Below are positions 57,727 to 62,382 of a stretch of 64,000 nt of DNA, in pieces (position 1 is the stretch's first letter; every line of letters begins with the position of its first letter). This DNA is from Adineta vaga (lineage: Eukaryota > Animalia > Rotifera), in contig CP075496.1 in assembly GCA_021613535.1 (NCBI GenBank), positions 10,540,001 through 10,604,000 of the forward strand. Reading direction: 5' to 3'. A program made the translations under genes and the position numbers. The notes under the pieces were generated by a model. That model had not been told where the DNA came from and did no database searches. It worked only from the letters and a program-made list of their open reading frames with translations.

Positions 57727-58012
57727 CGACAAATTTAAATTAACGAACTAACATTATTTTTCTCTTTCTCTATTTTTGTTTTCAAATACACGTGGTGAAC
57801 ATAGGAGAATTAAATTAACACGTATCTCTTTTTTTATTATATCTATCGATGTATATGTATATCATCAACATTAATGTTTACAATTGAAAACATAAATAAA
57901 CGAAAAGAGGAAAAAATATAACAAAAAAGAAACCAAAAATATATCGCTGAATTAATGCATGTTGCTGGAATAATAAACTAAAGCTTTAATAGAAGTGACT
58001 ATATGTTGAATT

Positions 58013-59466
58013 TTAACTGACAATATTCTGTTGAATTTTATAATAAAATGCACGTGCAGCATTGAAACGATTGTTATAACATTTATCTAATTCAACAAAT
58101 AATGCATCACGAGCATCATTATCATTAAGTCCAACCAACAATGTTTCATATAATTGTTGAAATTTATCTTCTCCTAGAGGTTTAAAACGATTTTTATGCA
58201 GACGTAATGCATTGAAACAAGACCAAAGATGTTCTTTAATTGATTGCCATACTTGTGTGATAATTTCATTATCACTTTCATGACCAATCATGGCTAAATA
58301 AATATCGATGATTCTTATTTTTTTAATCGAATAGAAAAAAGAAATTTTACCAATAAAAACATCTTCACTAAATGGTGAATGTGGAATATCCATAAAAATG
58401 CCAAGTAACTTTTCAAGTTTTGTCTTTTGACCAAATGCACAACCAAAATCAATATGAAGAATTTTACCATCATCCGTAATCATTATATTATCGTCTAAAA
58501 ATAGATTTGATATATATATGAATTTCTTATATATATATCTTACCATGACGATCAGCTAATTTTAAAACAATTCCCGATATGACGAAACCAAGAAATGTTC
58601 GTAATAAATTTCCTTTTCGTTCTGGTGATTTTTCAATAAAAGATTTCAATGCATCTGTCGATGTTGAATCTTTATTTTCAACAGCAGTTTTAAATTCAAT
58701 AAATGGATGAGCATTTTCCACACATTCAATAAGTCCTTCGTTTTGATCGACTGGTAAAACCTGACAAAAGAAAACAACATGAGAATTCTATTACATTAAT
58801 ATCATCTGTTTTTACTTCATATAAAACAACTTCAGCACTGACATTTTCTTCTTTGAAGATTTCATTCATTTCTTTCATTACAGCAACACACATCGCATCT
58901 TGTAATAAATCATCACCATGTTTATAGATGCATCTAAATCAAATCCATTAGAATTTTCAGAGATAGAAATAAAAAATAAAAGGTAAATCTTACACTTTTG
59001 TATTACCATCTTCATCAACAGCTGTAAATTTTAATGGTTTTCCTTTTGATGGTATAAATGATCCATCGCGTAATTCTGTAACAAGAAAATGTGGTGATGT
59101 TGGTAATAGAAATGGAACAGGTATTTGTGTTAAATCAGGTGTTTTACTATCAGCAGCTTTTGTCATGGTAGAGATTTTTTCAATTGCATCACGAGCAATA
59201 AATATACGTGCATTATTATCTAATACATGTTGACAAACTTTTCCATGTTTATGATAATGACAAGACCAATAGAGACGACTACAATCAGCATCAGTAAGTA
59301 TACCTAATGCTTGAATTAATGCTCGATCGGAATGTTCAAATAATGCCCAAAGAAAGAATGGATCATGAACATTGACAATATTTGTTGGTTCATTATCATT
59401 TTCATCTTCTTTCGATTTTACTTCCTCAACATTATGAATTGGTACATTCAGATCAAGATCGCACAT
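58013..59466 (-). CDS. Minimal PI3K/PI4K-superfamily kinase (~410 aa, 5 exons)
   Basis: Spliced exons total 1233 nt and give SKGKPLKF, IYKHGDDLLQD, GLIECV, LKLADRHDDNIMI and LHIDFG. Confidence 0.88.
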
Positions 59467-59684
59467 GATTGGTTGACTGAAATTACAACAAATCTAATTT
59501 GAAAAGAAAATAATATGACAAAGAATAATTTTATTAAGAAGAATTTTGTTTTATTTCAAACAAAAATATTATGTTACTGACAATTAACAACAATTTTATC
59601 ACACGAAACGAATTCTATTAAGCTGTAAGTTTATTTCTTGCTTAGGTATATATGCGGAAAAAAAGGAGAAAAATGTTCTTTTTT

Positions 59685-61625
59685 CTATGTAGTACGTTGT
59701 CGTTTAACAGTTGGTGTCGTACTATGTAGAATATCTTGTCGACATATGGGACATTTTCTCAAGTCTTCTTCTTGTTTAGTAGCGCAATCATTACATAAAC
59801 ATTGATGACCACATGGAAGTAAAATAACTGAAGTATTATTTGTTAAACAAATACAACAAATATCGGCAGTAGTACTTGCTGTTTTGTTTATAATAGTATC
59901 AGTTAGCTTTTCAAGCAATTCTTCAGTTTTTAAATTGCCTTTGATACTATGTTGTTTAGCTAATGTTTGTAAATCTCGACGTGGTATTGTATCAAGTGAT
60001 GGTAATGTTTTTTTAACAATTGGCGTAAGATTTGTAACAGTAGTAGTTGCAGCAGCTACTACTGTTGTCACGAGTGGAGGTAGATGAAGATCATTATTTA
60101 AAGGTATGTCATCTTCTTGTGCAATATCCAATAAATGTTTATATTCTTCATCATTCAATGATTGATCGTTGAGAAAAGCCATTTCTTTATTGAAATATTC
60201 GACCAAACGTGGAAATTGTCGACGCATTGTTTGATATTCATCAATAATTTCAGGTGTTGCTGATGCTTGACGCAATTTTAAATAACGTTTCATAAATGCA
60301 GTGTAACGCACAAGTAAAATAGCTTTACGTATTCCTGAATGCGAGAATGAATCAATATTCTTGTGAAATTCAAATTCTTGTTCATTTGTTTGTCGAATAC
60401 CAGAAACTGTATCCCATGATGTATTGATTTTGAATTTGTTCGTTTGTTCTTCTTCTCCTTCTTTTTTCGTATCAATAATACGAAATAGGAGACATCCACC
60501 ACGTACTTCATTTTTGTCATTCATTGGTGATGGAAATTCCGTAATTAATTTAATTGATTGACGAGTTTGAATTGGATCTTGAAGTTGATGAACTTCAGGT
60601 GATCCATATCCTTGTTCAAGTATATATCGTTCGCCTAAAAGTTTCAATTCAATATTAAATCCAATTGGTGTAACTGTATAATGAAATTCTGTATTCATTA
60701 ATTCATCAAATGTTCGAGCATTTCGAACATTACAATAATTACAACCAATTGTACGTGATACCGATTGAATAACTTCAGCACCTAAATCAAGACCAACACC
60801 AACAACAGTTGACCATATTGTTTGATCTTGTGCATTACGTTCAATACGTTCTAGAAATTTTTTACCATCATCTCTCGATACTTCCATATCGGTAAGAAAG
60901 AAAATACGACGACTAATCATATTATTATCATCTTTCAAACCTTTGGTATCAATCGTACTGTTGTATAATTCACTTGAAACTTCAATTGCTCGACTAATAT
61001 TTGTACCACCAGTAGAACGTAATTTCAGAATTTTCTCTTCCAGTTGTTTTTTATCTATTGAAGATAGTTTTTCAATGGGCTGTAAAACAGTTGCTGCATG
61101 ATTGAAAAGAACAATACCAAGTGCATCATCAGGTGTCAATTGTTTCAATAATGTTAGTAGTGATTGTTGTGCTACTTGCAATTTTGTTTTACCAGGTTCG
61201 CCTTCAAATCGGTCGGACATCGAACCAGATATATCAAGTGTAATAACTAAATGAAGTCGACAATGATAGGTATGAATACCAGGACCATCGAGACAACTAT
61301 TAAAATTCACACTTAACCAATGTTCTTGATTTTGTGTTCCATTTTCTAATGGATTAACTGTAGTAGCAATACCATAGGATGGTAAGAATAAATCTACAGT
61401 TGTTCGTTGTGATGCAAAATAATGTGCATAGAATGAACTTTCATAACTAACATCATAGTTAACATCAACTGGTGCTGCAGCTTCAAGTTCAGTTTCCGTA
61501 ACTGCTGCTTTGCCTTGTTGTTTAGCTTCAGCTTGTTTTCGTTGAGCGTATGCGTGAAATACTACAGTTTTTCGCGGTGCTTTACCACCTGTAGACTTAC
61601 GAGCTGTTTGCTTTGTACGAGCCAT
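59685..61625 (-). CDS. Intronless chimeric protein: histone H3 N-terminal tail + VWA domain + SAP-like motif + RING finger + NLS
   Basis: Starts MARTKQTARKSTGGKAPRK; VWA LVITLDISGSM...GGTNI...FFLTD; DLQTLAKQHSIKGNLKTEELL; RING CCIC...LPCGHQCLCNDC...CPICR; ends PTVKRQRTT. Confidence 0.9.
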   Translation of the reverse strand: MARTKQTARKSTGGKAPRKTVVFHAYAQRKQAEAKQQGKAAVTETELEAAAPVDVNYDVSYESSFYAHYFASQRTTVDLFLPSYGIATTVNPLENGTQNQEHWLSVNFNSCLDGPGIHTYHCRLHLVITLDISGSMSDRFEGEPGKTKLQVAQQSLLTLLKQLTPDDALGIVLFNHAATVLQPIEKLSSIDKKQLEEKILKLRSTGGTNISRAIEVSSELYNSTIDTKGLKDDNNMISRRIFFLTDMEVSRDDGKKFLERIERNAQDQTIWSTVVGVGLDLGAEVIQSVSRTIGCNYCNVRNARTFDELMNTEFHYTVTPIGFNIELKLLGERYILEQGYGSPEVHQLQDPIQTRQSIKLITEFPSPMNDKNEVRGGCLLFRIIDTKKEGEEEQTNKFKINTSWDTVSGIRQTNEQEFEFHKNIDSFSHSGIRKAILLVRYTAFMKRYLKLRQASATPEIIDEYQTMRRQFPRLVEYFNKEMAFLNDQSLNDEEYKHLLDIAQEDDIPLNNDLHLPPLVTTVVAAATTTVTNLTPIVKKTLPSLDTIPRRDLQTLAKQHSIKGNLKTEELLEKLTDTIINKTASTTADICCICLTNNTSVILLPCGHQCLCNDCATKQEEDLRKCPICRQDILHSTTPTVKRQRTT

Positions 61626-62382
61626 CGCGATTGACGTAAAATGAAAAATGATAGAGAAATCAGGTAAGACATATTCTTATATATTCGCTGGACGAGAATG
61701 TGTAATTGCAAAATATCTGCTCAATTTAGTGAACGAGAAAGAAATAACAAAAAACTAATATCTCAATACGAAGCACAGAGTGATAAAAAGAATATATTTT
61801 CTGCATCGGCCTTTTTAGAGGTAACAGATTGACAACAGATAGAGATATTACGAAATGAAATGTAACCAAACACATGAGTCATTCGAGATCAACCAATGAA
61901 ATTTGTTTTCGAAGTACTTGTCAGAAACCTATTTCATATACGAAAGATTACACTAGTTGACAACTATAGAAGAAATATTGTAAATATCTTTTTTCAGTGA
62001 TCATATTCAAATTAGTATATGAACGAATAGGTATTCTTTAAAGAGAAAAAAACATTAAGTTTATATCGAAAGATGTATTCTATATTAACTTCAATTGCAA
62101 AAAAAAATACAACTCGATTACATGATTGATACGTTCAATCTTCCCAAATTCAAATACAAATATACTGTTCTACCACAAAGATATATATACAAACAAATTC
62201 ACGAAAAAAAAACACATAAGAATTCTGTTCAATAGTTCATCACTCATTAAGTCATCGTCTCTTTCCAATTTTCATCTCTATGGAATACGATCTGATAGTT
62301 AAATTCTGATTTTATGGTCGAAATAAAATATAATTCTATCAAAGCACGTAACTGACATTTTCTGTTATGATATAAAAACTAT

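Follow-up and report, generated by a model that had tools for sequence, protein, structure and literature searches.

A gene of the bdelloid rotifer Adineta vaga was found to encode a protein that begins with an exact copy of residues 1-18 of histone H3, followed by a vWA core, an SAP-like motif and a RING domain. The gene lies in a 64,000-nt stretch of DNA (assembly GCA_021613535.1, contig CP075496.1, positions 10,540,001-10,604,000), hereafter called the window, and all positions are given relative to this window. We found that the gene was transcribed, that its H3 tail was under strong purifying selection, and that one non-histone family has retained the tail in at least four eukaryotic supergroups, joined to three different types of E3 ubiquitin ligase module. 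We propose, with moderate confidence, that the conserved tail docks as a free N-terminus on a chromatin protein that reads H3 residues 1-8 and that the predicted RING ligase ubiquitylates this partner or another member of its complex.

Overall organization of the tail-bearing protein

The gene, its protein and the associated features are as follows.

59685..61625, minus strand: intronless open reading frame (ORF) of 646 amino acids with the order H3 tail, vWA core, SAP-like motif, RING and basic end (ORF and translation; single unspliced RNA contigs)
59529..61827, minus strand: longest RNA-run contig over the gene, untranslated regions included (record 19 of run X6; where the contig stops is not a mapped end of the transcript)
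61569..61622, minus strand: exact copy of H3 residues 1-18, protein residues 2-19 (predicted to be disordered; predicted local distance difference test (pLDDT) below 50 at residues 1-15)
61260..61568, minus strand: N-terminal part of the core, residues 20-122, with helix 21-36 and two strands of a split β-sandwich (AlphaFold model)
60672..61259, minus strand: vWA domain, residues 123-318, with the MIDAS (metal-ion-dependent adhesion site) D131-x-S133-x-S135, T208 and D246 (Pfam and alignment)
60114..60671, minus strand: β-sandwich (residues 322-419) and helical bundle (430-504), completing an architecture like that of ArnB, the Catenulispora vWA protein and the Sec23 core (model and Foldseek/VIA)
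59889..59996, minus strand: SAP-like two-helix motif, residues 544-579, a putative DNA tether (model; PDB match with E 0.014)
59727..59864, minus strand: RING-HC domain (zf-C3HC4_3), a predicted E3 module in which no zinc ligand is missing (Pfam and sequence)
59694..59705, minus strand: basic C-terminal motif K641-R644, predicted classical nuclear localization signal (sequence; bdelloid comparison)
61562..61672, minus strand: out-of-frame upstream ORF of 36 codons with its ATG at -47, which overlaps the codons of the tail (orthologs do not share its position)

The initial annotation of this locus, made from the DNA letters, had placed an exact H3 1-18 copy at the true N-terminus. A stop codon was present 17 in-frame codons upstream of the start; therefore, the Met before the tail is the first Met, and the start downstream of the tail that had been considered as an alternative gained no support. 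Residues 2-19 agreed at every position with the H3(1-18) peptide given in PMC8166343, and the family profile matched H3 chains in the PDB across positions 1-29. The tail occurred once within the window. As had been claimed, the Pfam scan of the protein revealed no histone fold, and the model past residue 20 was a vWA core. The reading of the QRK sequence as a remnant near K27 was not supported, as the sequence was two residues out of register with H3 K27 and lay in the predicted helix 21-36 of the folded core.

The Pfam scan revealed a VWA domain at residues 126-310 and a zf-C3HC4_3 domain at residues 588-633 (E 1.5e-13; PF13920, 50.8 bits with a cut-off of 27). All eight zinc ligands of the RING were present (C590, C593, C605, H607, C611, C614, C625 and C628), with R629 after the last pair, and the MIDAS residues D131, S133, S135, T208 and D246 were invariant in 141 of 141 aligned homologs. 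The VWA domain with intact MIDAS, the C3HC4 RING and the basic nuclear localization signal of the initial annotation were thus recovered, the last as a prediction. The AlphaFold model, built on a 59-sequence alignment, had a mean pLDDT of 85.6 with residues 1-15 disordered. In the model, residues 20-505 formed a split β-sandwich, into which the vWA domain was inserted, and a helical bundle after it; two helices (549-584) and the RING followed. These SAP-like helices (549-558 and 567-584) had a pLDDT of about 90. The best PDB sequence match of the segment was weak (1jjr, 'thyroid autoantigen', E 0.014), an entry that we take to be the SAP domain of Ku70, and the isolated segment showed no Pfam match and no ESM Atlas match. 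The SAP-like motif therefore stands as a confident two-helix unit, for which SAP identity is plausible from the sequence and the model.

Transcription, junction and selection at the locus

The junction between the tail and the core, which the initial annotation had wanted confirmed, was crossed by both DNA contigs and contigs of spliced-RNA runs. It was spanned by contigs X1 record 8 (60786-62000) and X2 record 22 (59578-61778), and additionally by X6 record 19 (59529-61827) and X18 record 11 (61095-61769), both from runs that splice neighbouring genes. In run X6, the whole gene was contained in one unspliced contig, and both neighbouring genes were spliced. Coverage in other runs was partial: the X10 contigs listed break within the tail, the X11 contig listed ends inside it, X17 covers the 3' part only, and X20 holds a relative in pieces. 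Runs X21-X24 had next to no words in common with the stretch. Among the matches listed, the closest named ones were from Adineta and Rotaria (80-84%). Relatives were found at eight metagenome loci, with the same start in five; five loci shared downstream flanking genes with the window, and two shared upstream ones. The gene was thereby confirmed to be real and transcribed. H3-type contigs of the same runs aligned over the 57 tail bases only, with 6-7 differences, and ongoing gene conversion from H3 genes was ruled out by these differences.

To measure selection, we used the window gene and five bdelloid loci retrieved by patterns outside the tail, which gave 15 pairs. Over the 18 tail codons, which hold 38-39 nonsynonymous sites, no pair of the 15 showed any nonsynonymous difference (dN = 0). 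The proportion of synonymous differences (pS) in the tail was 0.33-0.72 in the 14 informative pairs (one pair was near-identical), the proportion of nonsynonymous differences (pN) in the vWA domain was 0.04-0.15, and the Fisher test gave p values of 0.002-0.006 for three pairs that include the window. Over 21 bdelloid orthologs, identity to the window protein was 95.8% in the tail, 82.4% in the vWA domain and 73.6% in the RING. The tail is under strong purifying selection, and the neutral decay that the initial annotation had named as a threat to its proposal was not seen.

Family range and evolutionary history

Among the 120 matches listed (259 found), 63 matched H3 1-18 at 12 or more positions. 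The tail was present at the start of 121 of 310 fetched family proteins, or 63 after dereplication at 60% core identity. Named carriers were the bdelloids; Vermamoeba, Rhizamoeba, Cavostelium, Protostelium, Acanthamoeba castellanii, Paramoeba and, with a decayed tail, Physarum of the Amoebozoa; the sponges Corticium, Oscarella, Sycon and Oopsacas; one choanoflagellate; the early fungi Endogone, Jimgerdemannia and Cladochytrium; the green alga Cymbomonas; and Amorphochlora, Paulinella and Nonionella of the Rhizaria. Some transcriptome labels may reflect contaminants, as an amphipod-labelled record grouped with amoebae. Vertebrates, insects, nematodes, yeasts and land plants were not named among the matches listed (240 rows). 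Phage records gave no match, and 52 pattern matches in viral contigs came down to two loci with a vWA match of only 26% and no tail-bearing viral member. We found no published description of the family in the literature searched, which was mainly open-access, so that an earlier mention is possible; database names were generic (vWA or uncharacterised), and the family is apparently undescribed. The initial annotation, which knew of no protein with this architecture, was in line with this result; what it overlooked was a family spread across eukaryotes on a prokaryote-type core.

A quick IQ-TREE analysis of 44 rows split 36 tail-bearing from 8 prokaryotic sequences with an SH-aLRT support of 100. 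In a FastTree analysis of 105 rows, tail presence required one change (74 rows with and 25 without the tail, after six N-terminally truncated rows were dropped). The tail-bearing proteins formed two subfamilies, one with sponges, fungi, the choanoflagellate and algae (support 97) and the other with Amoebozoa, a foraminifer and the bdelloids (support 99). The bdelloids lay within a 13-row group that held three named amoebae (support 97). A clade of bdelloids plus sponges was rejected by the approximately unbiased (AU) test (p-AU 2e-85; the group was named after the first tree had been seen), which ruled out vertical descent together with the sponge genes. Recent transfer was also rejected, as the GC content at third codon positions (0.136) was inside the 0.07-0.20 range of six neighbouring ORFs. 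Because the bdelloids nest with amoebae and the gene is intronless among spliced neighbours, an old horizontal transfer into bdelloids from an amoeba-like donor is probable on the sequence comparison. Ancient paralogy with many losses may explain the pattern instead; the Paramoeba protein, which stands outside the tree, carries a U-box, as members of the other subfamily do. The matches listed included a paralog labelled Adineta vaga, which was absent from the window.

Three further groups of sequences were observed. A second set of apparently eukaryotic homologs (P0095, P0116, P0118, P0281, P0303 and P0099) lacked the H3 tail and had an N-terminal motif of the prokaryotic type; its members also contained Hsp70, DnaJ, actin or ubiquitin domains and represent either separate acquisitions or gene-model fusions. 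An amoeba-side subclade of unnamed ENA/JGI records (P0057, P0058, P0059, P0066 and P0091) carried extra histone fragments behind the H3 tail and before an acidic linker and the core. Among 200 proteins scanned, the H3 38-53 region was found in four and a basic stretch, which we presume to be H4-tail-like, in three, with a Pfam Histone match on P0059; Pfam showed no E3 domain in this subclade. P0362 (JGI, 406 amino acids), a non-histone protein without a Pfam domain, contained three to four internal H3-tail-like repeats with acidic spacers between them.

Conserved positions of the tail

Changes at each tail position were counted on a 74-row tree, for which row entry required at least 7 of 18 tail matches. 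The counts were A1 3, R2 1, T3 2, K4 8, Q5 0, T6 0, A7 0, R8 2 and K9 16 for positions 1-9, and S10 7, T11 15, G12 4, G13 3, K14 10, A15 6, P16 11, R17 6 and K18 29 for positions 10-18; K9 was the most variable among positions 1-17. In the set of 63 dereplicated homologs, positions 1, 2, 3 and 5 were fixed by the search pattern, and A1 was replaced by G only. Position 4 was K in 53 and R in 10 of these proteins, with no other residue. K9 was replaced by a hydrophobic residue in 11 of 20 substitutions and T11 by V, S or A; hydrophobic replacement was also seen at K14 (5 of 11) and K18 (6 of 26). G12, G13 and A15 were kept in 58, 60 and 59 of the 63 homologs, respectively. The most degenerate tails had lost positions 9-13 and kept 2-8. 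The tail followed immediately after the Met in 105 of 108 proteins scored. Bdelloid orthologs retained K4, S10 and K14 in 24 of 24 sequences and K9 in 23.

As judged from these alignments, the conserved unit is the free N-terminal H3 1-8 block, which is made up largely of non-modifiable residues. Because K9, K14 and K18 change so often, mimicry of the K9, S10, K14 and K18 marks is apparently not the family-wide function; histone-type marks could matter in the bdelloid lineage, because the orthologs there keep K4, K9, S10 and K14. Importins bind H3 11-27 (PMC7752055), which is the less conserved half. Since this is the importin-bound region and no position from 1 to 17 varies more than K9, import and reading of a K9 mark fit the pattern poorly. 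With residues 1-8 conserved, docking on proteins that read a free H3 N-terminus is a better fit than either mimicry of the K9 mark or a simple import signal.

Prokaryotic homologs and the vWA core

Prokaryotic homologs were about 30% identical and came from Chloroflexota, methanogens, DPANN, the Candidate Phyla Radiation (CPR) and others. They had no tail, and their N-termini were hydrophobic signal- or anchor-like segments. Some contained an N-terminal zf-HC2 domain, and a sigma-70-family gene adjoined the homolog in 11 of 80 loci (including L011, L015, L019, L020, L023, L030, L041, L051, L075 and L076), which suggests that the prokaryotic proteins may act as extracytoplasmic sensors. Immediately N-terminal to the first core helix, the motif [IL]-G-[FL]-[SA]-[VT]-G-G-A-K-D was found in 164 of 179 tail-less, mostly prokaryotic homologs with the core start. 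This motif occupied the slot of H3 K9-S10-T11-G12-G13 and formed a strand (39-44, pLDDT about 91) in the model of a prokaryotic homolog; prokaryotic tblastn matches often started at residues 37-40.

Foldseek matched the window protein to 4fx5 (E 4e-18) and 8s05 (E 3e-17). With VIA, a prokaryotic homolog matched 4fx5 with a Z-score of 20.8 and a root mean square deviation (rmsd) of 4.7 over 356 residues, and 8s05 with a Z-score of 19.6 and an rmsd of 5.6 over 338. In the Atlas, structural neighbours of a sponge homolog included vWF_A plus YfbK_C rows at a TM-score of about 0.6. Core residues 20-122 were the counterpart of the vWF_A-type region in YfbK-like proteins (Atlas structural rows 5-10 all have PF12450 vWF_A, and PF12034 YfbK_C is present in five of these rows). 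By sequence, PF12450 and PF12034 were not among the 25 families listed (of 38) for 59 members, and isolated segments gave no match.

Variation of the E3 module and the C-terminal region

The scan for E3 domains covered 61 dereplicated tail-bearing homologs, with the window protein and one fragment left out. It revealed 7 zf-C3HC4_3, 3 zf-C3HC4 and 27 U-box domains. Because the E3 module varies in this way, with a RING or U-box in 37 of the 61 and neither in 24, the E3 module is, as far as these domain matches indicate, interchangeable, and the tail plus core is the constant unit. The E3 ligase architecture of the initial annotation therefore holds for the window protein, whose RING is intact, and does not extend to the family as a constant feature.

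The SAP-like motif was present in 23 and the basic end in 22 of the 24 tail-intact bdelloid proteins; the two proteins without the basic end were a partial and a fused gene model. A bdelloid paralog (P0022-P0027, P0029, P0031 and P0035), nested in the ortholog group, had Gly1 and 8-11 of 18 tail matches. All nine of its sequences had a decayed tail and lacked both the SAP-like motif and the basic end, with the RING kept in most. The joint loss was apparently one evolutionary event, which ties the tail to a probable nuclear role.

Proposed function and alternative explanations

In the mechanism that we favour, the initiator Met would be removed before Ala, leaving a free H3-like N-terminus. The protein is predicted to be nuclear by its basic C-terminal and SAP-like motifs. 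Its tail would then bind in trans, as a docking handle, to an H3-tail-binding chromatin protein, presumably a reader of the unmodified or K4-positive tail. Candidate partners would be of the PHD/ADD, RBBP4-NuRD or LSD1 type. The vWA core could provide a second, metal-dependent binding surface, and the predicted ligase would ubiquitylate the docked partner or a neighbour in its complex; homologs without an E3 domain would serve as adaptors. N-termini exposed by Met removal before Ala are bound by PHD fingers and NuRD, and this binding needs Met removal, R2 and K4 (PMC8166343). The initial annotation had proposed a nuclear ubiquitin ligase that uses a full H3 tail as bait or is regulated by histone-type modification; a nuclear E3 ligase with a tail handle is still the best reading, with the difference that the selected part is residues 1-8 and that K9, K14 and K18 drift.

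Several observations weigh against this mechanism. An E3 domain was absent from 24 of the 61 homologs, among them the chlorarachniophytes and all three of the scanned proteins with sponge names, although at least three of the 24 are truncated or frameshifted records. Family-wide, a basic C-terminal cluster was found in 47 of 53 tail-intact proteins versus 6 of 11 others, a comparison that has no chance control, and the link between an intact tail and the basic cluster is loose. The conservation counts were subject to the entry threshold and search pattern described above. An out-of-frame ATG lies at -47 of the tail gene. Additionally, the conserved prokaryotic strand in the slot of H3 6-13 is predicted to pack on the core, so the tail may partly bind in cis.

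A cis arrangement could be a pseudo-substrate or switch, in which the protein's own tail fills the core groove for the H3 6-13 strand until S10/T11 phosphorylation, a K9 mark or a nucleosomal H3 tail displaces it; the core would thereby read H3, and the ligase would be gated by the mark. The conserved, well-ordered prokaryotic strand in the H3 9-13 slot is consistent with this, as are the eukaryotic replacements of K9 by hydrophobic residues and of T11 by V, S or A, which resemble the prokaryotic motif, and ArnB, which has the same architecture, is switched by phosphorylation (PMC12852372). However, residues 1-15 were disordered in the model of the window protein, the loss of 9-13 and retention of 2-8 in the most degenerate tails is the opposite of what a switch predicts, hydrophobic replacement is shared by K14 and K18, and the match to the prokaryotic motif covers only four residues and may be a coincidence. 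We therefore regard the switch as unlikely. A prediction of the complex of the core (20-506, Mg) with the H3-like tail of homolog P0049 (2-31) scored 0.00, with no alignment used and with peptides outside the calibration, and was not used as evidence. We also see little likelihood that the tail is a mere nuclear import or retention tag captured from H3. Several importins bind the H3 tail, G12-A15 are seen in the Imp4 and Kap123 structures (PMC7752055), G12, G13 and A15 are well kept in the family, and an exported or membrane-anchored prokaryotic ancestor would have needed re-addressing. In contrast, the fixed block is 1-8, including the non-basic Q5, T6 and A7, and not the importin residues 11-27, and most tail-intact proteins have the separate basic C-terminal cluster.

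An integrated decoy, in which the tail lures effectors that intracellular bacteria or giant viruses direct at histones and the ligase removes or reports them, would suit the patchy distribution of the family, whose hosts are phagotrophic or rich in microbes (amoebae, with Acanthamoeba castellanii among them, sponges and bdelloids), and the further histone fragments of some amoeba-side homologs; Legionella RomA and LphD target H3K14 (PMC12937675). We nevertheless consider it improbable, as K14 changes repeatedly on the tree and residues 1-8 are the fixed ones, and the bdelloid gene has kept its synteny and evolves slowly; it has a single paralog group, and nothing in it resembles an arms race. 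That the protein is an assembly chimera, a gene-model fusion or the neutral remnant of a captured H3 gene start is highly improbable. Fusions of whole H3 to gene models are indeed common, since 119 of the 120 matches listed in the H3-tail fusion search have a histone fold, and H3 reads pile up on the 57-nt tail. Yet single contigs of independent DNA and RNA runs cross the junction, five independent metagenome loci have the same start and flanking genes are shared, the tail shows no nonsynonymous change and begins over a hundred family proteins, and its distance from the H3-type contigs indicates that it was not recently copied.

A broader scenario is possible but doubtful: an early eukaryote put the H3 tail on a prokaryotic vWA sensor, replacing the first strand, and the tail, written and read like H3, couples the histone-modifying state to ubiquitylation of chromatin regulators. 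In this scenario, sponges, choanoflagellates, early fungi, amoebae and algae still have the family, the standard model organisms have lost it, and bdelloids received it from amoebae by horizontal transfer.

Neighbouring features of the locus

A short upstream ORF is present at 61726-61806 (minus strand) with its start at -181. In loci L006 and L007, such an ORF is found at -181/-184 and its 3' half is similar, so that an upstream DNA element may be conserved here. The downstream spliced gene (57942-59487, minus strand) has a PI3/PI4-kinase-like Pfam match below the cut-off; it is syntenic in five metagenome loci and joined to the tail gene in one Rotaria gene model (P0033).

Significance and comparison with known systems

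The histone mimics known so far are short motifs, most of them viral or confined to particular lineages, and here a true H3 tail is carried by one non-histone family. This points to a chromatin-linked ubiquitin pathway unseen in work on yeast, fly, human and Arabidopsis. The natural substitutions (1-8 fixed, K4 replaced only by R, K9 free) would map the needs of the presumed reader. Possible hosts for study are Acanthamoeba castellanii (ELR16267.1), Physarum and Adineta, where the decayed-tail bdelloid paralog offers a built-in control. In carrier organisms, H3-tail antibodies and H3 peptides in proteomics could report the tail protein and not histone H3.

H3-like sequence in a non-histone protein is also found in influenza NS1 and G9a (as given in PMC8166343), but those are four-residue internal or C-terminal motifs, whereas the tail of this family is long, N-terminal, ancient and host-encoded. 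There is also a close likeness to the H3 N-terminal mimicry proteins (H3TMs) VRK1, BCL11B, SALL and FOG1 (Chen et al. 2021, PMC8166343), non-histone proteins with a Met-small-Arg-x-Lys start and a free H3-like N-terminus. M-A-R-T-K at the first Met falls under the H3TM definition iMet-small-R-x-K of that paper. H3TMs differ in that their motif has four residues, whereas the window protein has an exact copy of 18, which is longer in some homologs, spans supergroups and is joined to a vWA core and an E3 module.

YfbK, ArnB, the Catenulispora vWA protein (4FX5) and Sec23/24 likewise have a vWA domain in a split β-sandwich followed by a helical bundle. In contrast, the prokaryotic YfbK/ArnB-type homologs have a signal or anchor and the first strand where the tail family has the H3 tail, and C-terminal RING, U-box, SAP-like or basic ends were added in the tail family. 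In the accessible parts of the A. vaga irradiation proteomics report (PMC10665377, including four supplements), there was no mention of vWA. The RGLG plant ligases (PMC12647413) combine vWA and a C-terminal RING in one chain, and the WAV3 ligases (named in PMC12852372) combine vWA and RING with a reported ArnB-type core architecture. They differ from the window protein in that the available descriptions include no histone tail and that OsRGLG6 is a protein of the cytoplasm and the endoplasmic reticulum (PMC12647413). No RGLG or WAV3 name was present among the 240 matches listed, and the nearest tail-less homologs were prokaryotic. Both ingredients of the window protein are thus of known kinds, namely the H3TM start and the vWA-RING ligase represented by RGLG and WAV3.

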